NCBI GenBank assembly: GCA_964532425.1
Contig: CAZHIA010000001.1
Coordinates: forward strand, 270,846 to 334,845
DNA from: an uncultured Candidatus Saccharibacteria bacterium
GTDB taxonomy: Bacteria; Patescibacteriota; Doudnabacteria; UBA920
Direction of reading: 5' to 3'
Length of the DNA stretch: 64,000 nt
Positions 5,335-33,900 of the stretch are shown piece by piece. A model generated the notes under the pieces. That model was not told where the DNA came from. It did no database searches and worked only from the letters and a program-made list of their open reading frames with translations. The first letter of the stretch is position 1; each line of letters opens with the position of its first letter. The position numbers were made by a program, and so were the translations under genes.

Positions 5335-6180
5335 TTAGTCTTCGTTGCTTTCTCGCTGCTTCTCTTTCCGTTTTTCGCTTTGGTTGTGTTGGTCTTCCCT
5401 GTCCTTGGAACCACGAAAACCGCCCTTGAGCGAAGGCAGTGTCGAAGTGGTGCTGGTGCCCTGGACCTGGGCAGGGGGCAAGACCGGTGTGGTGGCTGGT
5501 GCGATGGATTGATCCTGTGCGTCAGTTTTTTCCTGGTCATGCGCTGCGCGCGCCCGGTCCCCGGGACCGTCCTCGCTGTTGTTCTTGTCCTGGTGCGGGA
5601 TGTTTACTTTGGCCTTTTTTGCGTGGGTCTTCAATTCTTGAATTGTGGTGTCGATGTCCTGGGCTTCATGGGATTGTCCGTGTTCTTCTTTATCCTTCTG
5701 AACATTCGAAAGGTCATCGATGGCCTGCTGGACCTGGGTCGCTGCCTCATTTTGGACCTGGGAAGGCACGGGCATATTGGCCTTTGGCGCGCTGGTCTGA
5801 ATTTTCTCGATCTCCTTCAGGCGCTGCTCGGCATGCTTGGCCTGGACCACGGCTTTCTTTTCCGGCGTGGGAGCCAGTGTAAGTTCAACTTTTTCCTTGG
5901 CCAATTTAACCGGATACAGCGGGTCTCCCGGTACGGTGCCTGATGCCGCGCCTACCGTGCCTGCCGTAATAGCTATGCCGGCAATGACCGCAGTACCAAA
6001 CTGGACCATGCGAATATGCGCGCGCCAAAAGGGAACTGTGCGCTGAGCCTCCGGCTGTTGCTGGGGAATGAGCGCGGCTTGCTGCAAGATGGCCGTGCGG
6101 ATGCGGGCTTTGGCGTGCGGTGCTAAGGAGAGTTTGCGGCGGAGGCTTTCGAATATGGAGTTGTCAGGCGTGCGGTTCAT
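5335..6180 (-). CDS. putative anti-sigma factor / sigma-associated single-pass membrane protein
   Basis: Overlaps the upstream ECF sigma gene by 17 nt. It has a cytoplasmic N-domain, one TM (VQFGTAVIAGIAITAGTVGAA) and an extracytoplasmic low-complexity region. The function is inferred from this architecture. Confidence 0.5.
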   Translation of the reverse strand: MNRTPDNSIFESLRRKLSLAPHAKARIRTAILQQAALIPQQQPEAQRTVPFWRAHIRMVQFGTAVIAGIAITAGTVGAASGTVPGDPLYPVKLAKEKVELTLAPTPEKKAVVQAKHAEQRLKEIEKIQTSAPKANMPVPSQVQNEAATQVQQAIDDLSNVQKDKEEHGQSHEAQDIDTTIQELKTHAKKAKVNIPHQDKNNSEDGPGDRARAAHDQEKTDAQDQSIAPATTPVLPPAQVQGTSTTSTLPSLKGGFRGSKDREDQHNQSEKRKEKQRESNED

Positions 6181-6727
6181 GGTCGTGGTTAATGAGTGCT
6201 TGTAATTTTTTTACGGCGCGGTGTTGGATGAGGCGAACTGCCAGGCTGCTCTTGCCGGTGATCTTGGCAGTTTCCTGGATTGAGTACTCGGAGAGATATC
6301 TCAGTTCCAAAATTGTGCGGTAGTGGGCGGGCAGTTTGGCAAGCAGTGCGGCTAATGCCCGGGCATCAATCTGCGCATCAATCGCAGCGCTATCGCGGGA
6401 TTCGACGGGAGTATCGAGATCGTCCAAAAGTTCCACTTCCTGCGGCTGGCGGACATTGCGGCGGTAATGATCGTGGCAGGTGTTGGAGGCAATGCGGTAC
6501 ATCCAGGCTGAAAAATTACCTCCCTGTTCCAGGCGGAACGTAGGCAGACCGCGCCAGGCTTTGAGGAACGTTTCCTGCAGCAGATCTTCGGCCGCTTGCC
6601 GTCCATTGACTTTAAGCCGAATGTAGCGGAATAGGGAATCAGCGAGCAGGTCGTAAATCTTTCCAAAAGCCTCGGTGTCGCCGTGCTGTGCCTTTTCTAT
6701 AAATGGGGTAAGTTCGTTTGTGTTCAC
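6164..6727 (-). CDS. RNA polymerase sigma-70 factor, ECF subfamily
   Basis: Sigma region 2 (DLLQETFLKAWRGL, FSAWMYRIASN) and region 4 (YRTILELRYLSEYSIQETAKITGKSSLAVRLIQHRAVKKL) are clearly present. Confidence 0.85.
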   Translation of the reverse strand: MNTNELTPFIEKAQHGDTEAFGKIYDLLADSLFRYIRLKVNGRQAAEDLLQETFLKAWRGLPTFRLEQGGNFSAWMYRIASNTCHDHYRRNVRQPQEVELLDDLDTPVESRDSAAIDAQIDARALAALLAKLPAHYRTILELRYLSEYSIQETAKITGKSSLAVRLIQHRAVKKLQALINHDHEPHA

Positions 6728-11623: not shown

Positions 11624-11667
11624 CACACATTCCATTTTTGTCCGGTCGGACAAAAATGGAATGTGTG
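11624..11667. repeat. 44 bp hairpin palindrome CACACATTCCATTTTTGTCCG-GT-CGGACAAAAATGGAATGTGTG (P2 family)
   Basis: Perfect 21 bp stem. The same core (ATTCCATTTTTGTCCGGTCGGACAAAAATGGAAT) recurs at 29984..30037 and 30685..30718. Confidence 0.8.
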
Positions 11668-11712: not shown

Positions 11713-12267
11713 TTATTTGTATCTGAACAACAGTTCTTCCAAAACAGCCTGATACTGTTTCCTTATGGATTCATCGTGGCCCACTTCGAGTACTTCATCG
11801 TTGAGGTTGGTAGCGGACGAAGTCCAGTTAAAGGAACCGGAGGCATAAGCCTTGTCCGTGACGATAGCCTTTAAGTGCATAATAGCCGCATGATCCTGGA
11901 GAACCACGGGAATACCGGCTTTGCGCAAACTGTCGATGATGTCCTTTTGTGAATCGAGTTGTTGGTACTGGGACCGGTCGGAGACGCCGCGGACATCCAG
12001 GCCGCGGTACTTGGCTGCCAGGAGAGCGTCGCGGATATCGGTGCGGGTAAAGGTATAGATGGCAAAGTAGACATACTTGTCCGCATCCTGCGTCAGCTGA
12101 ATGACCTCGCGGTTGAGCTGGTGCTGCTGGTTGTAATAAACTTTTATCTCGCGCTCATGCGCCGGCTTGTATTTGTAATCGTACAAAACCTGGCCGCATA
12201 AACCTAATAGCAGAATGATTACTACTATATAGAGTATGTCGCGCTTGAATTTCATAATAAAATCCAA
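11713..12267 (-). CDS. phospholipase D-like (HKD motif) family protein, Nuc-like endonuclease, membrane-anchored
   Basis: HLKAIVTDKAYASGSFNWTSSA matches HxK(x4)D(x6)GSxN. N-terminal TM. The true start may be the ATG at 12255 (MKFKRD), because codon 12267 is TTG. Confidence 0.75.
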   Translation of the reverse strand: MDFIMKFKRDILYIVVIILLLGLCGQVLYDYKYKPAHEREIKVYYNQQHQLNREVIQLTQDADKYVYFAIYTFTRTDIRDALLAAKYRGLDVRGVSDRSQYQQLDSQKDIIDSLRKAGIPVVLQDHAAIMHLKAIVTDKAYASGSFNWTSSATNLNDEVLEVGHDESIRKQYQAVLEELLFRYK

Positions 12268-12300
12268 ATTTCAAATTCCAAATTTCAAATCAATGACAAA
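12268..12300. repeat. left AT-rich inverted repeat flanking the four-helix-bundle gene
   Basis: aaatccaaatttcaaattccaaatttcaaatcaa is the reverse complement of the 12668..12712 segment (shared caaattccaaatttcaaatcaa). Confidence 0.6.
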
Positions 12301-12312
12301 ATGACCAATGCA

Positions 12313-12663
12313 TCAATTACGGCTTTTTGAAATAATCGTTGAAAATATTAGTACCAACTCGTGGGATTCTTTCCACAGTTGCCTGCATTCTGTTGCTCTG
12401 TCAGGGTTTGCGGTTGCTATCATCCGTGACCAGTGCATAGTCTCTTTGGCTTCCTTTTTGCAAATTCCGAGTTTATGGACAAAATCCTTTCTAGATTCGG
12501 CACCATCTGCTTCCATGTAATTAGCGCCGATGCTTGTGCTTGCTCTAATGAGCTGGCTGATAAGTGGTTTATTAATAGTAGAATCCAAAAGAGTGCGCGC
12601 GAAAATAATACTTTGCTCGCCCAACTTGGCTGTTCTTTCCTGCAAATCAAATGTCACTGTCAT
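12313..12663 (-). CDS. four-helix-bundle protein (23S rRNA intervening-sequence protein family, TIGR02436-like)
   Basis: Characteristic ...LIRASTSIGANYMEADGAESRKDFVHKLGICKKEAKETMHWSRM... motifs. 116 aa. Confidence 0.8.
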   Translation of the reverse strand: MTVTFDLQERTAKLGEQSIIFARTLLDSTINKPLISQLIRASTSIGANYMEADGAESRKDFVHKLGICKKEAKETMHWSRMIATANPDRATECRQLWKESHELVLIFSTIISKSRN

Positions 12664-12667
12664 ATTG

Positions 12668-12712
12668 GGATTTTGAATTTGATTTGAAATTTGGAATTTG
12701 ATATTTGAAATT
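12668..12712. repeat. right AT-rich inverted repeat flanking the four-helix-bundle gene
   Basis: tgggattttgaatttgatttgaaatttggaatttgatatttgaaatt; its reverse complement matches the left repeat. Confidence 0.6.
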
Positions 12713-13147: not shown

Positions 13148-13186
13148 AACCGTATTGTACCATGTGTTATACTATGTGTGGAATCC

Positions 13187-13222
13187 AACGTTAATCATCC
13201 GCGGCCGCGGATGATTAACGTT
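13187..13222. repeat. 36 bp palindrome AACGTTAATCATCCGCGGCCGCGGATGATTAACGTT (P1 family, NotI core)
   Basis: Perfect palindrome immediately upstream of the wHTH-Cas2-like gene. Relatives at 13786 and 22331. Confidence 0.8.
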
Positions 13223-13249
13223 GTAGACAATTTTATTAAGCTTTTTTAT

Positions 13250-13786
13250 ATGCCAGCTAAGAAAAGCGATTATATGTTGGAGGCTCTGGAGGTGCTATTT
13301 AACATCGGCAGCGAAATGATTCGATCCCTACCGCTACCGCTTGAAACGCCATACGAACATCTCCGTCGCGTGAGAAGTCTTCCGTATAAGACATACTATG
13401 ATTCCATGCACCAGCTCCACAAACGGGGTGTGGTTCGCATTTCGAAAAAGGATGACCGGTATTTTATAGAGTTAACACAGAAAGGCGCTTTGGAGATGCT
13501 GATGGAAAAGGCGGGGATGGATCATCAGGGAGCGTGGGACGGCAAATGGCGTTTGATTATTTTTGATATTCCGGAGAAGGCTCACTTGCAGCGCGATCGG
13601 CTGCGCTGGCTACTTAAAAAGAACGGCTTTATTAAACTACAAGCCAGCGTATTTATAAACCCATACCCGTTCAACCGTCAGGCGATAGCGTATTTGGAGG
13701 AAACCGGGCTGAATAAATATATTCGCATCCTTCGTGTGGACGATATGGGCGATGATAAAATCCTAAAAAAGAAGTTTAACCTGTAA
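13250..13786 (+). CDS. winged-HTH + Cas2-like (PaaX_C-type) protein, putative transcriptional regulator (paralog 1)
   Basis: N-terminal wHTH-like region. The C-terminal region WDGKWRLIIFDIPEKAHLQRDRLRWLLKKNGFIKLQASVFINPY matches the Cas2/VapD beta-alpha-beta pattern (vvvYDi..R.r..k.L..yG.rvQ.SVf.c). The ORF-track N-extension to 12923 overlaps smpB and is rejected. Confidence 0.6.
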   Translation: MPAKKSDYMLEALEVLFNIGSEMIRSLPLPLETPYEHLRRVRSLPYKTYYDSMHQLHKRGVVRISKKDDRYFIELTQKGALEMLMEKAGMDHQGAWDGKWRLIIFDIPEKAHLQRDRLRWLLKKNGFIKLQASVFINPYPFNRQAIAYLEETGLNKYIRILRVDDMGDDKILKKKFNL

Positions 13787-13821
13787 ACGTTGATCGTTCG
13801 CGGCCGCGAACGATTAACGTT
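13786..13821. repeat. 36 bp palindrome AACGTTGATCGTTCGCGGCCGCGAACGATTAACGTT (P1 family)
   Basis: Overlaps the stop codon of the wHTH-Cas2-like gene. Confidence 0.8.
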
Positions 13822-13887
13822 GTGGCATTTTGGATGGTTATTGTGTGTTCTGTCCGGGTTAATTTTTGCTGAGTTCTTGGTTTTAGG

Positions 13888-16179: not shown

Positions 16180-19100
16180 ATGTCCGAAGAGAAGCCACAA
16201 TCTACCGCACCAAATTTCGACCAGCTGGAACAAGAGGTTTTGAAGTTCTGGGACGAGAATCATATTTTCGAGAAGTCGCTGGAACAAACCAAGCACGGAA
16301 CACCGTACATTTTTTACGATGGCCCGCCGTTCGCTACGGGGTTGCCGCACTACGGCCATATTTTAGGCAGCGCGGTGAAAGATGCTTTCGGCCGCTACCA
16401 GACCATGAAGGGGCATTTTGTCCGGCGCCGCTGGGGCTGGGATTGCCATGGCTTGCCTATCGAGAACATCGTCGAACAGAATCTGAAAATCTCGGGCAAG
16501 AAGCAGATTGAAGAAGTCGGGGTGGAGCGTTTTAACCGCATCTGCCGCGAGAATGTGTTGCGATTTGCCGAAGAGTGGGGGAAGATGGTCAGGAGAATGG
16601 GCCGCTGGGTGGATTTTCAGAATTCCTATAAGACCATGGATACCACCTACATGGAAAGCGTGTGGTGGGGCCTCAAGCAGATTTGGGACAAGGGGCTCAT
16701 ATACGAAGACCGCAAAGTGCTGCTGTACTGTTCGCGCTGCGAAACGCCGATCAGTAATTTTGAAGTGGCCATGGACAACAGCTATCGCGATGTGACCGAA
16801 GAGTCCGTGTTCGCCAAATTCAAAATGCTGCCGCGCCAGCGCATCGTGAATGACCTGACCAATGACAAGACCTATGCCCTGGCCTGGACCACTACGCCGT
16901 GGACCCTGCCCGGCAACACCTCGCTTAACATCGGCCCGGACATAACGTATGTCATGGTAGAAATGGACAGTGGCGAGCGCTACATTCTCGCCAAGGACCG
17001 GCTGTCGGTCTTGTCCGAACCATATGAACTAGTGTCGGAATATCCGGCTCGCTCGCTGGAAGGATTGATGTACGAGCCGCTCTATCCTGGTGTAATCCGC
17101 GATCCGAACAACCGCGCCCACAAAATTTACCAAGCTAGCTTCGTGACCACCACTGACGGCACTGGCATCGTCCATAATGCGGCCATGTACGGTGAGGAGG
17201 ACTACCAACTGGCCAAGGAAAAGGGTTTGCCACGCGTGGATATGCTCGATCACAAAGGACAGTACTTGGAAATGGCACCGGAACATTTGCGCGGAGTCTT
17301 CTTTAAGGACGCGGACAAGATCATCCTGAAGGAGTTGAAAGAAAAAGGTTTGGTTTATAAGACCATGGCTTACCGCCACAGCTACCCGCACTGCTACCGC
17401 TGTGGCACGCCGCTGTTTTACAATGCCCTGCCTGCCTGGTTCATCAACATCCAACAGGTTAAGCCGCGATTGCGCCAGCTGAATAACCAGGAGATTAACT
17501 GGTATCCGGCGCATTTGAAGGAAGGCCGGTTCGACAAGAGCATGGAAAGCGCGCCGGACTGGAATATTTCCCGCAACCGCTATTGGGCTACGGCTTTGCC
17601 GTTTTGGAAATGCGATACTAAGGAATGTGGAAACGTCACATGTGTCGGGTCGGTTGCAGAGTTGAAAGAAAAAGCCACGAATTTTTCTCAAATTTATCCC
17701 AATTACGGATTACGGATTACGGATTCGGGGGCAACTGGCAGTGTTGCCGAACTGGATTTGCACAGGCCGTATATCGACCAGGTGGTGCTTAAGTGCGGGA
17801 AGTGCGGGGGAGAAATGCACCGCATTCCCGAAGTCGTGGACTGCTGGGTGGAAAGCGCGAGCATGCCGTTTGCGGAACTCCACTTTCCGTTTGAGAACAA
17901 CGCGGATCGAAACGCTGAACAATCGTTGATGTCGACTGCAGCCGCTGATGGCTCGCTGAATGACATGAATTTGTCAGGGATTATGGGTGGGTCTGATGTT
18001 GCCCCGACGACGCCTGCCGATGTTCAGCATCATTCCGCGTCAGATTCCGCGCCCTTCCGCGGTGTTGAAGACTTCCAGCATCGTTTCCCGGCGGATTTCG
18101 TGGCAGAGTATATCGCCCAAACACGTGCCTGGTTTTATGTCATGCACGTGGTCTCGACTGTCATCTTCGACCATGCCCCGTTCAGAAATGTGGTGACTAC
18201 GGGAACCGTACTGGCCGAAGACGGAAGCAAGATGAGCAAATCGAAGAATAATTTCCCGGATCCCTGGCTGCTTATAGAAAAATTCGGTATTGATGCCGTG
18301 CGGTTTTACCTGTTGTCCAGCCCGGTCATGAACGCCGATGATTTGAACTTCGCGGAAAAGAGCGTACAGGAAGTCAATCGCAAAGTGAGCCTGCTCCTCT
18401 ATAATTCCCTGACCTTCCTGCGCCTGTATACCTCGGGCAAGTTCGAAGACGTAAAACCTGAGTCATCAAATGTGCTTGACCGCTGGGTGCTGGCGCGCCT
18501 GGGTCAAACCAAGCGCGAAGTGACGCAGCAGATGGATGGCTACAATACGGTCAAAGCTTGCCGTGCCGTGGTTGATTTCGTAAACGACCTTTCCACCTGG
18601 TATTTGCGTCGCAGCCGCGACCGCATGAAGGCTGAGACCGAAGAAGGGAAAGTGGCTCTGTCTACGCTGGCATATGCCCTGGCTGAGACTGCCAAGCTGC
18701 TCGCTCCGGTTATGCCGTTCTTGGCGGATTACATCTATCGTGATGTGACCGGCAAGGAATCCGTGCACCTGGCTCAGTGGCCAGCCCAGACCGAGCATGT
18801 TGATGAGACTTTACTTAAGGCCATGGAAGCCGTGCGGGAAATTGTCTCGGTGGGTTTGAATGCCCGCAAGGAATTGAAGCTGCCGGTCCGCCAGCCATTG
18901 CAATCTTTGGCATACTCCGTCAAGGATGGTGCCGTTGAGGTTGCCGACAGTATGTATGTCCAGCTCATTCTCGATGAGCTCAACGTCAAGCAGTTGAATC
19001 CGCAGCTTCTGGACCAGCATACCCGTCCGGCGACAGCCAAGATCTTCACGGGTACCAACCTGGTCTCCCAGTTCTATTTGGACACAGCTTTAACGCCCGA

Positions 19101-19362
19101 ACTGAAAGCGGAAGGGTATGCCCGCGAACTGGAGCGGAGCGTTCAGGACCTGCGCAAGCGCAGCGGGCTGAAAGTGGGTGAATTAGTCGACGTCTATTAC
19201 AACACTCAGGAAGAATCTCTGGAGGAGCCACTGCTTAACCTGTTCGACCGCAAGAAGACTTACGTGAGCCAGATCTCCAAGAGTCTGGAAGTAGAAGCCG
19301 ACTTTGAAACTCAGGCCGACATTGACGGCAAGGGGATATGGCTGGGAATCGTGAAAATATAG
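16180..19362 (+). CDS. ileS: isoleucine--tRNA ligase
   Basis: 1060 aa. HIGH (PHYGHIL) and KMSKS present. It carries two low-complexity insertions, including an ATTACGG x3 microsatellite at 17697..17720. Confidence 0.95.
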   Translation: MSEEKPQSTAPNFDQLEQEVLKFWDENHIFEKSLEQTKHGTPYIFYDGPPFATGLPHYGHILGSAVKDAFGRYQTMKGHFVRRRWGWDCHGLPIENIVEQNLKISGKKQIEEVGVERFNRICRENVLRFAEEWGKMVRRMGRWVDFQNSYKTMDTTYMESVWWGLKQIWDKGLIYEDRKVLLYCSRCETPISNFEVAMDNSYRDVTEESVFAKFKMLPRQRIVNDLTNDKTYALAWTTTPWTLPGNTSLNIGPDITYVMVEMDSGERYILAKDRLSVLSEPYELVSEYPARSLEGLMYEPLYPGVIRDPNNRAHKIYQASFVTTTDGTGIVHNAAMYGEEDYQLAKEKGLPRVDMLDHKGQYLEMAPEHLRGVFFKDADKIILKELKEKGLVYKTMAYRHSYPHCYRCGTPLFYNALPAWFINIQQVKPRLRQLNNQEINWYPAHLKEGRFDKSMESAPDWNISRNRYWATALPFWKCDTKECGNVTCVGSVAELKEKATNFSQIYPNYGLRITDSGATGSVAELDLHRPYIDQVVLKCGKCGGEMHRIPEVVDCWVESASMPFAELHFPFENNADRNAEQSLMSTAAADGSLNDMNLSGIMGGSDVAPTTPADVQHHSASDSAPFRGVEDFQHRFPADFVAEYIAQTRAWFYVMHVVSTVIFDHAPFRNVVTTGTVLAEDGSKMSKSKNNFPDPWLLIEKFGIDAVRFYLLSSPVMNADDLNFAEKSVQEVNRKVSLLLYNSLTFLRLYTSGKFEDVKPESSNVLDRWVLARLGQTKREVTQQMDGYNTVKACRAVVDFVNDLSTWYLRRSRDRMKAETEEGKVALSTLAYALAETAKLLAPVMPFLADYIYRDVTGKESVHLAQWPAQTEHVDETLLKAMEAVREIVSVGLNARKELKLPVRQPLQSLAYSVKDGAVEVADSMYVQLILDELNVKQLNPQLLDQHTRPATAKIFTGTNLVSQFYLDTALTPELKAEGYARELERSVQDLRKRSGLKVGELVDVYYNTQEESLEEPLLNLFDRKKTYVSQISKSLEVEADFETQADIDGKGIWLGIVKI

Positions 19363-19480
19363 TAATCTCGAATATAACGAATACAGCGCAAATATACTTA
19401 TGCTGCTGGCCGTTCTTATCAACAAAGGATGGTGTGCGGTATTCGTATATTTGTGCTTGATTTGTATATTAGAGAATACT
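19363..19480. repeat. roughly 120 bp MITE-like intergenic element, copy A (terminal inverted repeats GTAATCTCGAATATAACG / CGTATATTAGAGAATAC)
   Basis: About 88% identical to 27667..27790. It begins at the ileS stop codon (TAGTAATCTCG...) and ends just before the recO start. Confidence 0.75.
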
Positions 19481-19484
19481 ACTT

Positions 19485-20219
19485 ATGTCCAGAGAGAATG
19501 CCTATAATGCCTTCATCCTCAAAAAGCAGCCCTACGGCGAAGGTGATGAACTGATTACGGTGTATACGGAGGAAGCGGGGAAGCTGCGGGTGCTAGCCAA
19601 GTCGGTTAAGTTCAGCAAAAGCAAGCTGCAGTACAATTTGCAGTCCTTGTTTTTGGTGCGTCTTTCCGTGGCAGGTACACATTTGCCGCGCATTATCGGT
19701 TCCGAAGCACAGCAAATGTATCCGCTCTTGCGGGAACGGATGGAAGCAGTCCAGGCAGCTCTCTACGGTACGGAACTGCTCCTGAAGTTCACCCCGGACG
19801 AACAAAAGAATGAGCACCTATTCCTCCTGTTTGGAAAATTTTTGTCGTTTTTGGACCGGCTTGGGGAGAATCCGGCCGCGCTGCCGTGGGGTCTCATTAA
19901 ATATAAGATAGAATTTATGGAAGCCATTGGACTTGGCGTCCAGCATAATGATACGCCCGCAGGTGTTCCGCTTGGATTCTCGATGTCGCGCGGCGGGTTC
20001 ACTGCCGATGATGACTCCTTGGACTTCCAGCCAGTTAGCCCGCTCGTGCTGGCCCAGTATAAAGCCATGCTTGCAGCCTCCTTTGACGATTTGCTGAAAC
20101 CGGCTGCCAATACCCACTTGCCGCAAGGTGAGCCGGCCGAGCTGCAGCAGCTGTTATCCGGCTTCGTTACCAGCCAACTGGAGCGGGACGTGAAGTCAGA
20201 GCGGTTTTTGAAATTGTGA
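19485..20219 (+). CDS. recO: DNA repair protein RecO
   Basis: N-terminal OB-fold region (AFILKKQPYGEGDELITVYTEEAGKLRVLAKSVKFSKSKLQ). Size 244 aa. Sits in a replication/repair gene context. Confidence 0.8.
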   Translation: MSRENAYNAFILKKQPYGEGDELITVYTEEAGKLRVLAKSVKFSKSKLQYNLQSLFLVRLSVAGTHLPRIIGSEAQQMYPLLRERMEAVQAALYGTELLLKFTPDEQKNEHLFLLFGKFLSFLDRLGENPAALPWGLIKYKIEFMEAIGLGVQHNDTPAGVPLGFSMSRGGFTADDDSLDFQPVSPLVLAQYKAMLAASFDDLLKPAANTHLPQGEPAELQQLLSGFVTSQLERDVKSERFLKL

Positions 20220-20227
20220 TATAATGG

Positions 20228-20328
20228 AATTGACAAATTAACAGATTAACAAATTAACAAATTGACTACAGAACTGCTCAATTGAGTCAATTTGTTAATT
20301 TGTGAATTATAAAATTTGTTAATTTCTT
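20228..20328. promoter_or_regulatory. AT-rich inverted-repeat array (GACAAATTAACA / TGTTAATTTGTC) containing TTGACA and TATAAAAT elements upstream of the 20329 gene
   Basis: gacaaattaacagattaacaaattaacaaattgac ... gtcaatttgttaatttgtgaattataaaatttgttaattt. Confidence 0.45.
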
Positions 20329-22312: not shown

Positions 22313-22330
22313 ATATCCTGCGGCTCCTAA

Positions 22331-22366
22331 AACGTTGATCGTTCGCGGCCGCGAACGATCAACGTT
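22331..22366. repeat. 36 bp perfect palindrome AACGTTGATCGTTCGCGGCCGCGAACGATCAACGTT (P1 family)
   Basis: Identical in architecture to the palindromes flanking the 13250 gene. Confidence 0.85.
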
Positions 22367-22425
22367 GGTGTATTTATGGATGTTCAGTGATTGCGAATCC
22401 TTTCGAGGTTTGATATGCTGCTGTC

Positions 22426-23043: not shown

Positions 23044-23055
23044 TGGTTATATGTT

Positions 23056-23657
23056 GTAGGGACAGGTCGCGACCTGTCCGTACAGGGAACAGCTATGTTT
23101 CAAAGAAAAGCCAATCGTTTGCAAGAATACGATTATTCCCAGCCGGGGTATTACTTTATTACCCAGTGCGTACAAGATCGGAGATGTTGTTTGGGAGCGG
23201 TGGTCGGTGGGGAGATGGTGTTGAATGAATACGGGAAGATCGTGCAGCGACAATGGCAATGGTTGGCCGAACATTTTCCAAATGTACAATTAGATGAATT
23301 TCAGATCATGCCCAACCACGTGCATGGGATTGTGATCATAACCCCGGCGGGAAACGGCCAGGGTGGTGTGTTTGTAGGGGACGGTCGCGACCGTCCCGTA
23401 CAGAAACCGCTTCCCGATTTAATCGGCGCATTTAAAACCACATCGTCAAAACTGATCCACCGTGCAGGTTTTACCGATTTCTCTTGGCACCGGTCCTTCT
23501 ACGACCACGTCATCCGCAAAGACGAATCGTTAGACAAAGTAAGGGAGTACATTCGTAACAATCCCAAGCAGTGGGAATTGGATGAGGAGAACCCAATCAA
23601 TATAAAGAAAAGTTAAATACCCCCTGTAGGGACAGGCATTGCCTGCCCTCCATACAG
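23056..23657 (+). mobile_element. IS200-like RAYT element: REP-associated tyrosine transposase gene flanked by, and interrupted by, cognate REP palindromes
   Basis: REP copies at 23056..23085 (GTAGGGACAGGTCGCGACCTGTCCGTACAG), 23374..23403 (inside the ORF) and 23626..23657 surround the HUH transposase ORF. Confidence 0.7.
23095..23616 (+). CDS. REP-associated tyrosine transposase (RAYT, IS200/IS605 TnpA-like Y1 HUH transposase)
   Basis: HUH motif MPNHVHGIVII and the C-terminal catalytic-Tyr region SFYDHVIRKDESLDKVREYIRNNPKQWE. A roughly 14 aa insertion (GQGGVFVGDGRDRPVQKP) is encoded by an in-frame REP copy. Confidence 0.75.
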   Translation: MFQRKANRLQEYDYSQPGYYFITQCVQDRRCCLGAVVGGEMVLNEYGKIVQRQWQWLAEHFPNVQLDEFQIMPNHVHGIVIITPAGNGQGGVFVGDGRDRPVQKPLPDLIGAFKTTSSKLIHRAGFTDFSWHRSFYDHVIRKDESLDKVREYIRNNPKQWELDEENPINIKKS

Positions 23658-23692
23658 GTCGGTCATTGTTGGGGAATCACCAATAGCTGCCC

Positions 23693-25485: not shown

Positions 25486-27666
25486 ATGGATCTCAGTAGT
25501 TTGAACGACAAACAGTATGAAGCGGTGACGGCCCCTCTCGGGCCGGTTTTGATCTTGGCCGGGGCAGGCAGCGGCAAGACCCGCGCTCTGGCCTACCGCA
25601 TTGCGTTTTTGTGCCATGAGCATTTAGCCGAACCCGAGCATATTTTGGCTTTAACCTTTACCAACAAAGCGGCCAAAGAGATGGCCGACCGCGTCCAAAG
25701 GATCCTGCAGGACAATCCGTGCAGCGTGCCATATATGGGTACATTCCATTCCATCTGTGCGCGCATCCTGCGGCAGGAGATTATAAAGCTCGGCTACACT
25801 AAAGGATTCACTATTTACGATAGCGATGACCAGGCCAGGGTTGTCCGAGAGATTATCCAGGAGCTGCATATCGACAAACGGTATGGCCCCAGCTTTTTCC
25901 GGGCCATGATCTCGAGCGCAAAAAACATCCTGCAGGCACCCTCGGAACTCCAGATCGGTCTGGACCCGGATACGCACAACTTGGTCCGCGAAGTGTATGT
26001 GCGCTACCAGGATTACCTGTTCCACCAGAACGCGGTGGATTTTGACGACCTGCTCATGCTCACCGTGAAGGTCTTCCAAAATTTCCCGGAGGTTCTCGAA
26101 AAGTACCGCGACCTGTTCCGTTATATCTTGGTCGACGAATATCAGGACACCAACCATGCCCAGTATGTCTTTTTATATCTCCTTGCCGAAAAAACCCATA
26201 ACCTGTTCGTAGTCGGCGATGATGCACAGAGCATTTACGGTTTCCGCGGTAGCAACATCCGAAATATTTTGAATTTCGAGCAGGATTTCCCCGAATGCAA
26301 GGTCATTAAGCTGGAACAGAACTACCGCAGTTCCAAGAATATTTTAGCCGTGGCCCAGAAGGTTATTGAGTTGAACGCCGAACAAAAACCTAAAACGCTG
26401 TGGACGCAAAATGACGAAGGTCCCAAGGTGGAACTGGTCGAATGCGAGGATGAGACAGGCGAGGCCGAGCTGATCGCAAAGAAGATCATCAAAATATCCA
26501 CACTGAAAAACGCGGATGCGGAAACTGATAAACACGGATCAGGTGAACTCGAGTATGAGCCAGAGGAGAAACCTGCGGGCGGATTTTCCATTCTCGACCA
26601 TTTTTTGAAGAAAGCCCGTACCCAGAATAAAAAAGGCGGCCCGCAATTTCCCTCGTTTCTGCCCCAGCTGCCGCGCGATCATGAGCCGCTCAGGCAGTTT
26701 GCCGTGCTATTTCGCACTCACGCTCAATCTCGCGTGCTGGAAGAAATTTTCATCCAGTCAGCCATTCCATACCAGATCATCGGGGGAGTGCGGTTCTATG
26801 AACGCAAAGAGATTAAAGATGTTATAGCCTACTTGCGCCTGGCCATGAACTATCGCGACTTGGTCTCGTTAAAGCGCGTACTGAACGAACCTGCCCGGGG
26901 TATTGGCGAGCGCAGCTATCTGCTCATTAAAGATGCAGTCATGGCCGAAAGCGTGGCTGCGAAGACGGGGAGCCGCGAGCCGCTGCCCCTGGACCGGTTT
27001 GCTGCAAAACTGAAAGACATCAAGTTTGGGCCGAAGATCGCCGCAGCAGTGGATAATTTTTTCCTGTTGCTGGGCCGAATAGCCAGTTTGGACGCTGCGG
27101 AAAACTTGGGCGCGCTCATGCGGCTCGTTATTAAGCGAACCGGCTATGAGGAGTGGGTGCGCGACGGGACCGAGACGGGCGAGGCGCGTTGGGAGAACGT
27201 GGAAGAATTGCTGACCGTGGCGGAAAAGTTCGGTGGCCGGCCATGGAAGGAAGGTCTTGAAGCGTTTTTGGAAGAGGTGGCGCTCATTACGGAGATCGAA
27301 GAGTCGCAGGAAGAACGTGACTGCGTGACACTTATGACTCTGCATTCTGCTAAAGGCTTGGAATTCGATACAGTCTTTTTAATAGGTCTTGAAGAGGGTG
27401 TGCTGCCGCATTCGCGCAGCTTGATGGAGCCGGCTGAGCTCTCCGAGGAGATTCGCCTCGCATACGTGGGGCTGACGCGCGCCCGGAAGAATTTGGTTTT
27501 GACGTATGCCCGCCGCAGGCGCGCGTTTGGCAGCCTGCAATACAACCAGCCGTCGCGCATACTGCGGGTCCTACCGCGCGATAGAGTGAATTTTAAAGGC
27601 TCGTCATATGGCTCTCCGTTCGAGCAGGAAGAAGGGGAGAATACGTATGAAGAACTGGAGTTTTAA
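25486..27666 (+). CDS. pcrA: ATP-dependent DNA helicase, UvrD/PcrA/Rep superfamily 1
   Basis: Walker A AGAGSGKTRAL. Motifs II (ILVDEYQDTN), IV, V and VI (VGLTRARKNLVLTY). Confidence 0.9.
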   Translation: MDLSSLNDKQYEAVTAPLGPVLILAGAGSGKTRALAYRIAFLCHEHLAEPEHILALTFTNKAAKEMADRVQRILQDNPCSVPYMGTFHSICARILRQEIIKLGYTKGFTIYDSDDQARVVREIIQELHIDKRYGPSFFRAMISSAKNILQAPSELQIGLDPDTHNLVREVYVRYQDYLFHQNAVDFDDLLMLTVKVFQNFPEVLEKYRDLFRYILVDEYQDTNHAQYVFLYLLAEKTHNLFVVGDDAQSIYGFRGSNIRNILNFEQDFPECKVIKLEQNYRSSKNILAVAQKVIELNAEQKPKTLWTQNDEGPKVELVECEDETGEAELIAKKIIKISTLKNADAETDKHGSGELEYEPEEKPAGGFSILDHFLKKARTQNKKGGPQFPSFLPQLPRDHEPLRQFAVLFRTHAQSRVLEEIFIQSAIPYQIIGGVRFYERKEIKDVIAYLRLAMNYRDLVSLKRVLNEPARGIGERSYLLIKDAVMAESVAAKTGSREPLPLDRFAAKLKDIKFGPKIAAAVDNFFLLLGRIASLDAAENLGALMRLVIKRTGYEEWVRDGTETGEARWENVEELLTVAEKFGGRPWKEGLEAFLEEVALITEIEESQEERDCVTLMTLHSAKGLEFDTVFLIGLEEGVLPHSRSLMEPAELSEEIRLAYVGLTRARKNLVLTYARRRRAFGSLQYNQPSRILRVLPRDRVNFKGSSYGSPFEQEEGENTYEELEF

Positions 27667-27790
27667 TAGTAATCTCGAATATAACGAATATAGCGCAAAA
27701 TATGCGAATGGCTATTGGCCGTTCCAAGTAACAAAGGACGGTGTGCGGTATTCGGATATTTGTGCTTGATTCGTATATTAGAGATTACTC
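27667..27790. repeat. roughly 120 bp MITE-like intergenic element, copy B
   Basis: Begins TAGTAATCTCGAATATAACGAATATAGCGC right after the helicase stop and ends ...CGTATATTAGAGATTAC. About 88% identical to 19363..19480. Confidence 0.75.
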
Positions 27791-27802
27791 CTTGATACAT
27801 AT

Positions 27803-28720
27803 ATGAACGCTGACGGTTTAAAAGAATATTTACGAAGGTATCAGATAGCACCCAATTTTACGTACGGCCAGAATTTTCTCATTGACGATCTGGTACTGAT
27901 TGATATGGTCGAAGCTGCCGGTGTTACGAAAGGGGATGCGGTATTGGAAATCGGCCCGGGCATCGGCAATTTGACGCGCATGCTGTGCGAACATGCGGGG
28001 TTTGTGCTGAGCGTGGAGAAAGATCCGAAATTCTATCCGATTTTACGATCGATTAAGAAAGATTGTAAAAATTTTCGTTTTGAGGTGGCTGATGCGTTAA
28101 GGTATAATTTTCAGGATTTTTTCCGATCCGGATCTACAGATAGAAATCCGGATCAACGGATAACTACGGATTTGAGACATCAGCAGTTATCAGTAGATCA
28201 GGATGATATCAGTATATCCGGATCGGGTTATAAAGTAGTGGCAAATATCCCATACTACATCACCGGGAAGATCCTCCAGATGCTCTTGAATGCCAAGGAT
28301 AAGCCCACGAGCATCACGGTGCTCACGCAAAAGGAAGTGGCTCAGAACGTGACCGCTAAAACAGGCGACCTGTCTGTGCTGGCCATTTCCGTCCAGCTGT
28401 ATGGAGACCCGAAAATAGTCAAGATTGTCCCGGCAAGAAGCTTTTATCCGGCGCCGAAGGTAGACAGCGCGATTCTGCACATAGACCTGCACAGCAAACC
28501 GAAATATGAGATTGGGGATGAAAAGAAATTCTTTTCCCTGCTGAAAGCTTGTTTTGCAGGCAAGCGAAAGCAAATTCACAACACGCTGAAGAACAATTTG
28601 CGCATGACAGAGGAAGAGGTTAAGCGAGTCCTTGGCGCTACCGGTATCCGCCCTGAAGCCAGGCCGCAAGAACTTTCCATCGATGATTGGGTCAGGCTAA
28701 GCCAGAATTTAAAGATTTAA
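27803..28720 (+). CDS. rsmA: 16S rRNA (adenine1518-N6/adenine1519-N6)-dimethyltransferase RsmA/KsgA
   Basis: YGQNFLID, the SAM motif LEIGPGIGNLT, and NIPYYIT. It contains a roughly 35 aa repeat-derived insertion (CCGGATC repeats at 28120..28230). Confidence 0.9.
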   Translation: MNADGLKEYLRRYQIAPNFTYGQNFLIDDLVLIDMVEAAGVTKGDAVLEIGPGIGNLTRMLCEHAGFVLSVEKDPKFYPILRSIKKDCKNFRFEVADALRYNFQDFFRSGSTDRNPDQRITTDLRHQQLSVDQDDISISGSGYKVVANIPYYITGKILQMLLNAKDKPTSITVLTQKEVAQNVTAKTGDLSVLAISVQLYGDPKIVKIVPARSFYPAPKVDSAILHIDLHSKPKYEIGDEKKFFSLLKACFAGKRKQIHNTLKNNLRMTEEEVKRVLGATGIRPEARPQELSIDDWVRLSQNLKI

Positions 28721-29983: not shown

Positions 29984-30037
29984 CATGCGACATATTCCAT
30001 TTTTGTCCGGTCGGACAAAAATGGAATATGTCGCATG
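29984..30037. repeat. 54 bp perfect hairpin palindrome CATGCGACATATTCCATTTTTGTCCGGTCGGACAAAAATGGAATATGTCGCATG (P2 family)
   Basis: Immediately upstream of wHTH-Cas2-like paralog 2. Confidence 0.85.
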
Positions 30038-30091: not shown

Positions 30092-30649
30092 ATGGCAAGG
30101 AAACACAAGCGGAACAGTAAGGAGGTCAAATTGACAGTCGCTGGGCATATACTAATATATTTGCTAGTAGGAATAGATTTGTTGCCCCGGCCGTTTGAAC
30201 ATAAAACCGCCTACGTCAAAAGAATTTTTAAAGGACAAGTCGCTTACTCGGCCTATTGGTCAGCCGTACAGCGCCTTGAGCGGCTTGGTTTAGTGATTGA
30301 AAAAGAAGACGATAATGGAAATATTGTATTCGCATTGACTGAGAAGGGGAGACTCGAAGCTTTATTTGAGAAAGCGAAGATTCAGAAGCAGGAACCGTGG
30401 GATGGAAAATGGAGATTGATGATCTTTGATATTCCTGAAAAGGCCCGCCATCAGCGCAGATTATTGCGCTATTTATTGAGAAAGAATCAATTTGTTAAAT
30501 TGCAAGAAAGTGTCTTTATTAGCCCTTACGCTCTGAATGTTGAAGCGATTGCGTATTTAAAAGAAACTGGCTTGAATGTATATATTCGTCTGCTTCGCGT
30601 AGACCAAATGGATGATGATAAGGACCTTTGTAAGAAGTTTGGTTTATGA
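30092..30649 (+). CDS. winged-HTH + Cas2-like (PaaX_C-type) protein, putative transcriptional regulator (paralog 2)
   Basis: About 45-50% identity to the 13250 protein across the C-terminal half (WDGKWRLMIFDIPEKARHQRRLLRYLLRKNQFVKLQESVFISPY...AIAYLKETGLNVYIRLLRVDQMDDD). Confidence 0.6.
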   Translation: MARKHKRNSKEVKLTVAGHILIYLLVGIDLLPRPFEHKTAYVKRIFKGQVAYSAYWSAVQRLERLGLVIEKEDDNGNIVFALTEKGRLEALFEKAKIQKQEPWDGKWRLMIFDIPEKARHQRRLLRYLLRKNQFVKLQESVFISPYALNVEAIAYLKETGLNVYIRLLRVDQMDDDKDLCKKFGL

Positions 30650-30684
30650 GTTTAAAAATCATATTTGCTGCCCGAACCAGGAAC

Positions 30685-30718
30685 ATTCCATTTTTGTCCG
30701 GTCGGACAAAAATGGAAT
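30685..30718. repeat. P2-family hairpin palindrome ATTCCATTTTTGTCCGGTCGGACAAAAATGGAAT
   Basis: Directly downstream of paralog 2; same core as the repeats at 11624 and 29984. Confidence 0.8.
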
Positions 30719-30979
30719 ATAACAAATAGAAGAGGATGAGTATGGTTTTGAAGGTTGGGTTTGGATTAGAAATGAATCGGAAATGAATGGAAAATGGTTC
30801 CCGGTTTGTAGGATGTGGTTATTGGGAAAAAATTTTGTGGACAAACGGGGTTTGTGGTATAATATTTGCAAGAAATGTAGAGCGAGTTTCGGAAATAAAG
30901 GTTCACTCTGTAAACAGCACGGAAGTGAACCTGTATTAGCTCCTCGGCTCGCTCGTCCGCAAGCGGCCGGCCTCTCTCT

Positions 30980-33900
30980 ATGTCGCTAATTAAAACAGAT
31001 CTGGTGAGATTTCCTCTTTCTAAAATAAAATCAGCCATTTTTATAGTTTTGGCCGTGTTTTCCGTGGCAATCGGAGTTGCTGCGGCGTATCCGCGTCCGG
31101 TTTTAGCCCAGACAACCGCTTCGTCCGGGCCGATTTCCGATTGGGAGCCTGTGAATATCCGCGGCAGCGAACCGGCTACGACGACGGCCGAATCGCTCGG
31201 ACAAGTGGCTGGGACTTCAACTTCGGCGAGTAGCGAGAATGGCGCCTCAGGAGCCATTAAAGGGATGATTACACTGGTCAACTTGGTCATTCGCGCAATT
31301 TTGACTTTGATCAACAAGGTGATATTCGTTATTTTCACCACCCTGATCGCACCTTTTTTGGAGGCAATGCTGTCCATTCATACGTATAGCGACAAGTTCG
31401 TATCGATCATCTACCCCGGCTGGCAGATTGTGCGAAACCTCTCAAACATGGTTTTTATCATAGCCTTGATAGCCATTGCCATGGGTACGCTGTTCCAAAT
31501 GAGCAATTACCAGTTCAGGCAGCTCTTGATCAAGCTTGTTATAGCTGCGCTTTTGGTGAACTTCAGCCTGGTCATTGGCCAAGCGGTACTTGGTCTGGCG
31601 GATACGATACAAAACCAATTTTTGCCGAATAATTCAGAAGCCATCAGGACGCTTGCGAGAGATTTAATGGAGCGCGGCACTGTTGAGATTTTTAACAACG
31701 TTCCGGTTACTACCGACCCGTTTAGCGTAGCTGCCAACTTATTGTTTATGGAAATGGTGACGCTAGGAACTTTTGCAGTGTTTGTGGCTATGGTAGCATT
31801 TTTGGCGATACGGGTTATTGCCTTATGGATATTGCTGATGGTGTCGCCGCTTGCGTATGTGGCAGGAGTGTTGCCAACGACAGCGGGATTGCGCGGCAAG
31901 TGGTGGAGCGAGTTTTTGAAATACGCTTTCTTCACTCCAATCATGGCTTTCTTTATTAACCTGGTTGCCATGATGAATAAGGCGTATGGGGGAGGCCAGC
32001 TGCTCGGGCAATTGATCAGCAACCCGGTGACCAACAGTGCGATTGCAAACTTTTTCTTGCAAATTTCCAGCAACATTTTACTCGTAGTATTTCTGTTTTA
32101 TTCGCTCAAGTGGGCTGAAGGGGCTGGTGTATTCGGTTCGGCTGCCATTAGTAAAGTTGCACAAAAAGGATTCTGGGCGCCGATGAATGTATCCAGAGCC
32201 GGGTTGAATGCCGGGTATAACAAGACCAAAGAAGGTCTGAATACGGCTCGCATGAAGGCGGCAACGGCTTTGGGTAGTCCGGGTGCCGGCGGTAAAAAGC
32301 CGAACATGTTTGCCCGTGCCGCATCGTACACGCTCGGGTATCCGGAAAGCGCCAAGGCCAAGAAGGAAGCCAAGGAGAAAAAGCTGCACGATTTGCAGCA
32401 TGACTTACAGGCGGTGCGTTCTGATGCTTTAGTGGCTTCCCAGGGCGGACATCCGCACGAGCGCCTTCATAACATTGACCACCGCAAGGACGACAAAGTT
32501 AAGGCATCGCCATTCTTCAATGGTGCAACTTCAGCGCATGGGTTTGATGCCGCGCAAGACGATCCGAAGCTTTCTAAGGTGGACCGCATGGCTGCCCAGG
32601 CTGCGGAATTTGAGAAGACCGTGGACGGGGACGATGTGGAAGGCTTCTTGAAGAGCAAGGGCTACGCGCCAACCCGCGAAGGGTATGTGCAGTTTGCCAA
32701 TGACCTAACGACCAAATATGGCTGGGACCAGGATTATGCCAAGCATTATTTGGCTAAAATGGATTCCAAGTTCAAGAAGAATAACCAGTTGAATTACGTG
32801 GGCGTGGTGGATACGGAAAGTCATAATATGGATATGGTTAGTATGACGAACATTCCGGCTCAGATTGAGGGCACTAATATGCTGGAAGGCCAGGAAGAGT
32901 TCGAGCGCATCCAAAAATTACCATTTGACCAACGGAAGGGGGCAGCAGATGCCCTCTCCGGTGATGAGCAGCAGCGCTATGCCAAGTACAAGAACTTCTT
33001 TGATGCCCAACGCAATTATGACCGCATCGACAAAGGACAAATTCAGGAGAAAGATTTGTCAGATGCGGAGCGGGCGAATATGGCAGCGTACAAGCCATAT
33101 CTCAAGATGGTCAACGGCCAGTATAAGGCCCGGGCTAAAAAAGGCACGCGTGCGCTGGTGGCCGATGTTCCGGCTAATGTGTACTATGCCAAGGATAAGT
33201 CCGGTAAGCTCATAGTGACCGATCAGGCTGCCGAGTTGTTGACGACCGGCGGCGAAGACCTCTACCGCCAGTCTGGCGCTGTCAGCGAAGCCCATAAGCT
33301 GGCGTATGACAAGATCATCCATGAAAAGGGTGGCGCTAAAAAGATGGAAGATGCCTTTACGACAGCCATCTATCGCCAGCAGCAGATGGAGGGCAAGGAT
33401 GATATTAAGTTAGCCCGCACACAGGCTCGCCAGAAAGTTACCGAGGTTTCCAAGAATTTGTATAATACTGCGATCAGTTATAGCGAAGATACGGGGACTT
33501 GGTCAGAGCCGGTTAAACTGGTTTCCCAGACCAAATCTTTGCAGGATGTGGTCAAGGAAGATACCAATTTGAACCGCCATTTTTCAGGACTGGAGCAGAA
33601 GGATGCCAATCGTGTGGTCCAGTATTACTCTTCCGGCTGGAACGAACCGGAACGGTTTAAGAGCGGTTTATCTGAGAGTATGGTAAAGATGCGTGAGGGA
33701 CTTAAAACCGATGAGGAGCGTGCTTCATTCGATAATTTGGTAGATGGAATAAAAGACCAGCAAGCACAGGCTTTTGCTGGCCGGTTCCAACCCCAGCAAC
33801 TTTCCCAGCCTGGCCGCGAAGTGGTTATGGATGGAGGACAGCTACAGGAAACGTCCCAAGCCATCCAAACTTCATTCCGCACGGTTATGGATGCTAATCC

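Follow-up and report, generated by a model that had tools for sequence, protein, structure and literature searches.

The attC sites of integrons, such as the repeats of Vibrio cholerae, are imperfect palindromes, some 60-140 nt in length, found immediately past stop codons, and copies on the same chromosome can be about 90% identical. Ogata and co-workers are said to have described, in 2000, Rickettsia palindromic elements (RPE) of about 100-150 bp that sit in frame within protein genes, at permissive surface sites. The REP sequences and REPINs of Pseudomonas and E. coli are hairpin-forming, non-autonomous intergenic repeats that go with a REP-associated tyrosine transposase, or RAYT (PMC3116915, PMC3733652). 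Correia elements (CREE) in Neisseria and ERIC/IRU elements in enterobacteria form hairpins in transcribed intergenic regions, and those of CREE can be a target that RNase III binds and cuts, with an effect on how the neighbouring genes are expressed (PMC2649163, PMC10969869). The intervening sequences (IVS) of 23S rRNA in Coxiella burnetii and Leptospira have a terminal stem that is cut by RNase III (PMC4990558). According to one survey, no phyla have inverted repeats at a higher density than some of those in the Candidate Phyla Radiation (CPR) (PMC13155455). In this paper, we study a pair of palindromic elements, copy A and copy B, found in a stretch of 64,000 nucleotides from an uncultured bacterium of the Doudnabacteria lineage (contig CAZHIA010000001.1, positions 270,846 to 334,845); this whole stretch is called the window in what follows. 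The reading that we favour, with a probability of about 0.55, is that A and B are members of a lineage-wide class of AT-rich palindromic elements of Candidatus Doudnabacteria, selfish or neutral repeats that are co-transcribed with their neighbours as intercistronic stems. A literature search on the arm sequences, and on families of hairpins or of miniature transposable elements with inverted repeats (MITEs) in CPR, returned no description of such a family, which apparently has not been described so far.

Copy A separates ileS from recO, and copy B separates a uvrD/pcrA-type helicase gene from rsmA (Table 1). Their alignment has 127 columns, of which 110 are identical, and two single-base gaps: the identity is 86.6% if gaps are counted, and 88% over the ungapped positions. 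A preliminary description of the window, made from its sequence, had announced an element of about 120 bp, about 88% identical in its two copies, at the 3' ends of ileS and of the UvrD/PcrA helicase gene, and this is borne out. The identity collapses to the left of the TAG that opens the repeat, where one further base, an A, is common to both copies, and to the right of the CTT that closes it. The coding flanks are not duplicated: on the left, codons of ileS face codons of uvrD; on the right, A is followed by the ATG of recO, and B by nine unrelated bases and then the ATG of rsmA. A segmental duplication that includes flanking coding sequence, one part of the outcome that the description itself had named as fatal, is thus excluded.

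The two copies start at, or right after, a stop codon, as had been claimed. Copy A opens with the stop codon TAG of ileS (19360-19362); in B, the stop codon TAA of uvrD (27664-27666) directly abuts the same TAG, which is vestigial there. All four neighbouring genes are indeed on the + strand, but the statement that they are essential holds less well, recO, uvrD and rsmA being housekeeping genes that are not known to be essential. When mismatches are allowed, up to three and on both strands, the 24-mer and the 32-mer common to A and B still occur at these two sites only in the window, and they never occur in 100 shuffles. The repeat is not an artefact of the assembly of this metagenome-assembled genome, because Logan contigs of run SRR11567520, which are assembled independently, carry A and the part specific to B: contig L001 has A from its 9th base, and contig L179 has the B-specific 3' end (L-numbers are the labels of the contigs and loci that we compare). 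Both contigs end inside the arms common to A and B, as is expected of a true repeat.

Each copy folds into one continuous imperfect hairpin, with 49 pairs and -55.4 kcal/mol for A (z = -10.2), and 45 pairs and -51.7 kcal/mol for B (z = -6.5). The terminal inverted repeats and the internal hairpin that had been proposed are parts of this structure: the ends, GTAATCTC and GAGA(A/T)TAC, do pair, but a single imperfect hairpin spans the whole element. At the foot of A, the stop codon of ileS pairs with the CUA of the 3' foot, and the ATG of recO lies 2 nt past the stem; in B, the ATG of rsmA lies 13 nt past the stem. The shared fold has 43 pairs that are possible in both copies, 41 of them invariant and two of them G-C in one copy and G.U in the other, and the other 15 of the 17 changed columns fall in loops, bulges or copy-specific pairs; this count is circular, the structure having been derived from the same two sequences, and it is not independent evidence. 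The pentamer CGAAT recurs in the 5' arms, at positions 19368 and 19378 in A, and at positions 27676, 27686 and 27705 in B. The 3' arm of B contains its complement ATTCG at positions 27751 and 27768, with a degenerate ATTAG near 27777, and A is without one of the motif pairs kept in B.

We define the class of periodic-motif hairpins as hairpins of at least 25 bp, in a spacer or at a permissive site, in which a motif of 5-6 nt recurs every 7-11 nt and is mirrored in the other arm. Both copies belong to this class. They are also, like MITEs, short non-coding elements with terminal inverted repeats and, like IVS, long terminal stems formed by inverted repeats at a permissive site.

Are such hairpins found at the same places in other species? 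Loci of about 45 species were collected through homologues of RecO. The nearest of these proteins are about 50-53% identical to that of the window, and those with a name come from Candidatus Doudnabacteria or Patescibacteria; across the species compared, the identity is about 40-50%. The gene order argS-ileS-recO-DUF11 ... uvrD-rsmA is kept in nearly all of these loci. In many species, the ileS-recO and uvrD-rsmA spacers are 85-150 nt long and mostly consist of one hairpin of 28-65 bp each, with a gap of about 0-6 nt to the stop codon on its 5' side and of about 0-21 nt to the start codon on its 3' side. Other species have no hairpin there, and the two genes overlap or are separated by 1-16 nt. 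Four loci (L036 8142-10000, L049 8014-10000, L016 8700-10000 and L048 8852-10000) have an insertion of 1.1-2.0 kb, and no hairpin, at the ileS-recO junction.

The sequences of the junction hairpins differ from species to species, but their design is common: the 5' arm contains 3-5 copies of a motif of 5-6 nt, one every 7-11 nt or about one helical turn, and the 3' arm contains the complements of these motifs; the copies are direct repeats along one arm and are inverted along the other. Most common is the template TTTACNNA-N-TACNNA-N3-4-TACNNA-N1-2-TACNNA, where NN is GA, TA, GG or CA, and the arms of many relatives have this TACNNA motif four times; a second template repeats (T/A/C)CGAAT about every 10 nt, CGAAT being the motif of the window. 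The copies within one hairpin are usually of the same variant, TACGAA, TACGGA or TACTAA. L025, L036 and L015 all use TACGGA, and L025 has it at both junctions, in parallel to the presence of CGAAT at both junctions of the window. The two arms covary in these variants: the outer NN of one arm is complementary to that of the other in 47 of 56 elements, and the maximum reached by shuffling is 40 (n = 1000).

Copy A resembles the ileS-recO hairpins of five of these loci, L035, L029, L024, L018 and L046. Where L035 reads TAG-TAAT-ATA-TCGAATCAACGAAC, the window reads TAG-TAAT-C-TCGAATATAACGAAT, and the block TTGATTCGT is found in the 3' arm of both. Three of the four best foreign matches of R1, a covariance model built from A and B, fall exactly on ileS-recO spacers; E-values of this model are 7e-4 for L035, 0.028 for L029 and 0.16 for L025. 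The reciprocal model R2, built from L035, L029 and L024, hence from relatives only, finds B with an E-value of 0.0034, which we count as weak evidence. Within the group of L035, L029 and L024, the spacers have an identity of 0.78, against 0.79 and 0.73 for the flanking coding DNA: the spacer diverges at about the same rate as its flanks, in agreement with vertical inheritance. By its position, copy A seems to be the counterpart of the ileS-recO hairpins of other species and, judging from these comparisons, appears to be an old, vertically inherited resident of this junction that predates the split from several species.

Copy B would then be a younger copy, about 87% identical, of the entire A-like spacer. 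The reverse direction is disfavoured because B starts with TAA-TAG-TAATC, whose TAG is the stop codon of ileS in A, and because the tract common to both is the whole ileS-recO spacer, from the stop codon to the base before the ATG of recO. At the uvrD-rsmA junction, where B sits, most relatives have other hairpins of the class. Either transposition or ectopic gene conversion may have produced the copy.

The class is widely dispersed. At least 120 metagenome stretches contain the exact arm TACGAAGTACGAAC-N2-6-TACGAA, which occurs at a variety of junctions, and, among the matches listed, some contigs have up to six copies of it. The exact 20-base arm is conserved across many metagenomes, whereas the RecO proteins of the species compared are only about 40-50% identical to that of the window. 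Strictly defined TACGAA-type hairpins lie between co-directional genes in 13 of the 16 cases in which both neighbours could be assigned, and the gene pairs around them, rpsB-tsf for example, are unrelated. At a given junction, the class is present or absent depending on the species. Two variations on the arm sequence were seen. Positions 5427-5700 of L084 (Ga0172368_10011989) are a tandem array of the 25-nt unit TACGAAGTACGAACAAATACGAACC, in which the block of arm motifs forms a satellite and not a palindrome. The other, CCCGCACCACGTAGGATGCGGGGCAAGC, is a GC-rich palindrome of about 28 nt nested in the 3' arm of a TACGAA hairpin (L074 at about 5560-5640, L060, L063, L077 and L086); it is missing from the otherwise near-identical L075 6223-6322, and looks like a REP-like insertion polymorphism within another repeat.

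Other members of the class are found in the window itself (Table 1), one of them inside a gene. The palindrome within rsmA, which folds at -48 and -52 kcal/mol, keeps the reading frame and adds about 30 amino acids to RsmA (RSGSTDRNPDQRITTDLRHQQLSVDQDDISISGS); this insertion is absent in L005, L013, L025 and L021, and other sequences occupy the same site in L010, L034 and L002. Matching arms may also enclose a small gene. All four S23p genes examined (23S_rRNA_IVP, TIGR02436) lie between inverted arms of 36-43 nt, 73-86% complementary and with periodic motifs, and within strings of protein-coding genes: these cassettes are the one in the window, L005 2934-3409, L002 534-962 and L009 8160-8650. 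In L009, it is the uvrD-rsmA hairpin that encloses the gene, which encodes the four-helix bundle of S23p. Matching arms 450-480 nt apart enclose genes for GxxExxY proteins (TIGR04256), and these genes, some of them frameshifted, lie within or adjoin TACGAAGTACGAAC-type arms in L062 2682-3170, L108 4963-5451, L164 193-650 and L078 at about 1096-1250. The metagenome loci amount to 816 kb, and nowhere in them do matching arms enclose a cargo larger than a small open reading frame (ORF) of S23p or GxxExxY type; no gene of the size of a transposase is found there.

Table 1. Elements A and B, their neighbouring genes and related features; positions are those of the window.
Feature	Position	Strand	Description
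Copy A	19360-19484	+	125-nt palindromic hairpin element, occupies the whole ileS-recO spacer; stem 19360-19482
Copy B	27667-27793	+	Same element in the uvrD-rsmA spacer; stem 27668-27789
ileS	16180-19362	+	Upstream of A; Pfam tRNA-synt_1, Anticodon_1
recO	19485-20219	+	Downstream of A; identity by Pfam; no Shine-Dalgarno match
uvrD/pcrA-type helicase gene	25486-27666	+	Upstream of B; identity by Pfam
rsmA/ksgA	27803-28720	+	Downstream of B; identity by Pfam; no Shine-Dalgarno match; contains an in-frame palindrome
In-frame palindrome in rsmA	28123-28230		108 nt; periodic CCGGAT/ACGGAT; found by model R2, E = 1.5e-4
Sister hairpin	20226-20326	+	recO-DUF11 spacer; motif AATTGACAAA; 40 pairs, z = -9.7
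Sister hairpin	45378-45478	+	Between a PD40-repeat gene and radA; motif AAATTGACAAA, common to 20226-20326
Sister hairpin	41594-41657	+	Between VirB4/TraG-like and SLT-domain genes; motif ATAAC(G/A)ATAAC
S23p cassette	12260-12712	-	43-nt inverted arms, 86% complementary; motif AAATTTCAAAT; encloses S23p/23S_rRNA_IVP gene 12313-12663
RAYT-like Y1 transposase gene	23095-23616		173 aa; 3.6 kb from A; Pfam Y1_Tnp, E = 1.2e-6; HUH (HVH) and YDHVIR motifs

A stable stem immediately past a stop codon recalls a terminator, and a terminator-promoter cartridge was indeed among the roles first proposed, together with a small RNA. A scan of the window finds no terminator-like site in 19360-19484 or in 27667-27802: the stems end in ...CUACUUAUG and ...CUCCUUGAUAC, and no U tract follows them. 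The window does have true terminators, GC-rich and with a U tail, at other places (55184-55239, 56936-56981 and 61325-61370). The promoter prediction is also negative: inside A and B, no sigma-70-like pair of -35 and -10 boxes, spaced by 16-18 nt, is found on the + strand, although this comparison uses the consensus only and CPR promoters are poorly known. The sole sigma-70-like match in either copy is a weak site on the - strand, 27714-27687, and a TATATT hexamer in the 3' arm counts in favour of this reading. An independently transcribed small RNA fares no better: at the gathering threshold, Rfam 15 finds only tRNAs in the whole window, at E-values up to 10 it finds only chance-level miRNA and snoRNA matches on A and B, and on the loci of eight relatives it finds one tRNA and nothing else; moreover, the element fills the intercistronic gap. 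A small ORF in the 3' half (MVCGIRIFVLD...), whose start is in the apical part of the hairpin, was considered and rejected as a protein gene. It has 40 codons in A, where it overlaps recO out of frame, and 21 codons in B, where its end forms an ATGA overlap with rsmA; three of four substitutions are non-synonymous, and the hairpins of relatives are without this ORF. We consider that a cartridge, a small RNA or a small protein gene is very improbable.

Two other candidates were tried and rejected. The copies are not a TIGR-Tas array (PMC12045711): they are single hairpins and not tandem repeats, they have no box C/D motifs, there is no Tas gene nearby, and no Nop-domain protein appears in the scans of the window proteins. 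The CGAAC motifs do not form a LexA Cheo box (CGAAC-N4-GTTCG), being direct repeats within an arm in which no pair of half-sites is separated by N4.

The next question is whether the hairpin is maintained as RNA or as DNA. The RNA of the + strand of A, with 7 G.U pairs and no A.C mismatch, folds at -55.4 kcal/mol, and its antisense at only -29.8 kcal/mol. Such an asymmetry could be taken as a sign of selection on the transcript, and the G.U pairs as its proof, but this argument was dropped after three controls. A scan of raw minimum free energy in sliding windows is uninformative here, GC-richer coding sequence folding just as well as the AT-rich hairpins, and hairpins were called spacer by spacer instead. 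The + strand then folds better in 13 of the 14 window spacers between + genes, and also in 11 of the 16 spacers between - genes. This strand is G-rich, with a positive GC skew, throughout the window. Lastly, the 122 long hairpins between co-directional genes, taken over all loci, show no sense bias, with 57 versus 65 elements and 558 versus 588 G.U pairs. The asymmetry of A probably reflects compositional skew and not necessarily RNA selection. Members of the class are also found in convergent and divergent spacers, within an ORF, and as tandem arrays. Because of these locations, and because there is no sense bias, we favour a selfish or neutral repeat that acts at the level of DNA.

How could such repeats be tolerated within operons? 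Elements of the class would survive where the genome permits them, in tight junctions between genes, in a loop on the surface of RsmA, and beside S23p and GxxExxY genes. At a junction, the hairpin spacer would be transcribed together with the flanking genes, as an mRNA stem of 45-49 bp; this co-transcription is probable because no promoter-like or terminator-like site separates the element from these genes. The stem would set the upstream stop codon and the downstream start codon at the two feet of one helix, and this adjacency may let termination-reinitiation, or initiation that depends on unwinding, continue; in relatives without the hairpin, these genes lie directly side by side. With its 45-49 bp, the helix is as long as a substrate of RNase III should be, and cleavage by this enzyme may follow; Pfam scans of the window genes find no RNase III gene in the window. 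The geometry of the stem would make insertions tolerable at such junctions, and may modulate the relative expression of the neighbours, as in Correia and ERIC elements.

Several observations weigh against the favoured reading. The exact 22-mer GTAATCTCGAATATAACGAATA of A and B has no match in collections of genome, metagenome and viral contigs, among which the source genome does not figure, and the subfamily formed by A and B has only two copies within the window. The kinship with the hairpins of relatives is faint by some measures: R2 scores A at an E-value of 0.12 only, and also scores unrelated AT-rich hairpins, and the global identity between A or B and these hairpins, 0.54-0.61, comes without a random baseline for that scoring. 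No target-site duplication was found, the flanks being AAAATA and ATGTCC for A, and TTTTAA and GATACA for B, and Pfam scans of nearly all the called genes of the window found no transposase with ends matching A and B. The sole transposase-like gene of the window, the RAYT, is flanked by palindromes of a different, GTAG-tagged family (TGTAGGGACAGG...). Finally, the recurrence of hairpins at the same junctions, together with the concerted change of their motifs, could mean that a selected function, or a co-evolving binding factor, is at work.

If there is no transposition at all, B may have arisen by ectopic gene conversion or recombination between hairpins that already resided at two junctions 8.3 kb apart, as a case of concerted evolution. 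Both junctions are occupied in most relatives, so probably they were in the ancestor; the copied tract is a whole spacer that includes the stop codon of ileS; the two junctions of L025 both carry TACGGA; and other families exist within the window, namely the D1 and D2 palindromes described below and the hairpins at 20226 and 45378. We think that this is quite possible, with some doubt, for the surroundings of B show no trace of an earlier hairpin, conversion requires initial homology, and the spread of the class to many junctions and ORFs is left unexplained. A classical MITE, that is, a non-autonomous element derived from an insertion sequence and mobilised by a transposase, of DDE or another type, with terminal repeats and a target-site duplication such as the TA of Correia or IS630-type elements, is rather unlikely. 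The preliminary description called the element MITE-like, and part of this stands: the copies are short and AT-rich, have inverted ends, sit at two unrelated sites, and belong to a dispersed class that is present or absent between species. One can even read A as GTAATC...GAATAC between two TA dinucleotides, but the same reading of B gives TA...TC, hence no consistent duplication. The palindrome spans the whole element and not just its ends, neither the window nor the 816 kb of loci yields the transposase that this would call for, and A is seemingly old and vertically inherited.

The recurrence of hairpins at the same two junctions in most relatives, despite a complete turnover of their sequences, speaks for a selected RNA element that acts in cis: a site for processing by RNase III, a stability barrier that makes the expression of unrelated neighbours independent, or a device for stop-start adjacency by which termination-reinitiation still works. 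The filling of the spacer from stop to start, with gaps of about 0-6 nt on the 5' side and 0-21 nt on the 3' side, goes in the same direction, as do the 1-16-nt spacers of hairpin-free species, the downstream genes without a Shine-Dalgarno match (a strong one precedes 16 of the 60 window genes), the greater stability of the sense RNA of A, and the changes between A and B, which mostly avoid the shared pairs (2 of 17 changed columns are paired, both from G-C to G.U). Against this, the strand asymmetry tracks the + strand and not the direction of transcription, the 122 hairpins have no sense bias, the count of pairs is circular, and a role in mRNA is unlikely for those members that lie in convergent or divergent spacers, in an ORF or in the tandem array of L084: we hold this explanation to be unlikely. 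More unlikely still is an array of binding sites for a sequence-specific protein that acts on the duplex or on a folded strand, with a motif that co-evolves: a nucleoid protein, a regulator, a Y1/RAYT transposase or a PD-(D/E)XK protein of the GxxExxY type. It would account for motifs spaced by about one helical turn, direct in one arm and inverted in the other, for the single variant used in all motif copies of a hairpin and sometimes at both junctions, and for an exact 20-base arm kept across many metagenomes, as against RecO proteins of the compared species that are only about 40-50% identical to that of the window; a RAYT is, moreover, present in the window. However, neither A nor B has a link to a candidate protein, the repeats that flank the RAYT are unrelated to them, and family turnover, or the templated repair of palindromes, could also homogenise the motifs.

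It is tempting to unite these observations in a bolder conjecture, which we regard as speculative and somewhat unlikely. There would be one CPR-wide family of mobile palindromes, whose full members carry S23p or GxxExxY ORFs and whose empty hairpins, such as A and B, are non-autonomous. The motif would be recognised by a co-evolving factor in trans, the cargo protein or a Y1/RAYT transposase that works on folded single-stranded DNA, and the family would invade gene junctions, ORFs and rRNA. Such a family would bring together IVS, RPE-like and MITE-like repeats, and would explain the very high density of inverted repeats in some CPR phyla.

The genomes of CPR, or Patescibacteria, are tiny and gene-dense; yet, in this lineage, palindromes of 100 nt are tolerated between housekeeping genes that are probably translationally coupled, and inside a conserved enzyme. 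The concerted change of the motifs, the deep conservation of an arm, the links with IVS-type ORFs and the in-frame insertions make the class more interesting than two copies alone. If its three unusual traits, a motif that recurs once per helical turn, the concerted change of this motif between lineages and an exact arm common to many metagenomes, reflect a dedicated mobilising or binding factor, then bacteria have a repeat system of a new kind, from which rRNA intervening sequences may have originated. If the elements are inert passengers, they offer a clear case of a hairpin geometry that lets selfish DNA sit in operons without separating stop and start codons. On the practical side, the Logan contigs show that such repeats interrupt the assembly of CPR genomes from short reads, and it is advisable to mask or model them when annotating operons, small ORFs and RNA structures in CPR.

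The window has other repeats and gene groups of its own. Two sets of near-perfect, GC-centred palindromes of 42-46 nt were found, D1 (13186-13231, 13785-13830 and 22330-22375) and D2 (11625-11666, 29990-30031 and 30681-30722). Two paralogous PaaX_M/Cas2-like genes (13232-13786 and 30092-30649), with 73% DNA identity over 90 nt, are each flanked on both sides by a pair of palindromes of one family, D1 or D2, whose role may be that of an operator, a terminator or the end of a cassette; it is within a copy of D2 that Logan contig L179 stops. Positions 30980-44039 are a type IV secretion or conjugation-like cluster, with a PrgI-family gene (37086-37535), a VirB4/TraG-like ATPase gene (38251-41577), an SLT-domain gene (41679-43589) and several large ORFs without a Pfam match. 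On the - strand, 5335-6727 and 50970-52776 are paralogous pairs formed by an extracytoplasmic function (ECF) sigma factor gene and a gene for a DUF5667 protein.

We can now return to the known systems. Like REPINs and REP sequences, A and B belong to hairpin repeats of about 100 nt that are dispersed in genomes and evolve as families, and a RAYT-like Y1 gene is present in the window. The product of this gene matches NF047646, the NCBIfam model of REP-associated tyrosine transposases, with an E-value of 4.6e-12, below the cutoff of that model. However, A and B begin with TAGTAATCTCG and have no GTAG or CGTC tag, they are not doublets of a short GC-rich REP, a pentamer or hexamer recurs periodically along their AT-rich arms, and they do not flank the RAYT. 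What flanks it, in region 23044-23670, are the GTAG palindromes TGTAGGGACAGGTCGCGACCTGTCCGTACAG, at 23055-23085, and, near 23625, CTGTAGGGACAGGCATTGCCTGCCCTCCATACAG; the repeat, called family D5, is also present at 9116, 9216 and 57004. The RAYT is absent at this position in L002 and L005. Together, the RAYT and D5 look like a REP/RAYT system in a CPR genome.

With the Correia and ERIC elements, A and B share an imperfect palindrome of about 100-150 bp, an intergenic location and a long hairpin; they have no sequence similarity to either, and the 26-bp terminal repeats, TA duplication, IHF site and promoter-generating ends of Correia were not found in them. The likeness with attC sites is a matter of position, both being palindromes right after the stop codons of co-directional genes, and this identity was rejected: the core sites R'' and R' (RYYYAAC ... 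GTTRRRY) are absent from A and B, Pfam scans of the window proteins find no integrase domain, and the neighbours are not cassettes but housekeeping genes that are syntenic in about 45 species.

The resemblance to RPE comes from the sister element in frame within rsmA. Copies A and B are themselves intergenic, have no sequence relationship with RPE and belong to another host lineage. The likeness with IVS extends further: in both cases a long stem of inverted repeats, sometimes around an S23p ORF, is found sporadically at conserved permissive sites, and in this lineage the S23p genes (window, L005, L002 and L009) and the GxxExxY genes (L062, L108 and L164) lie within similar periodic arms. The differences are that A and B carry no ORF, and sit in protein-coding operons and not in rRNA. 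All in all, A and B are best filed as a new variant of the known small palindromic repeats, of the MITE, REPIN, RPE or IVS-like kinds, in a lineage for which apparently no family had been described.

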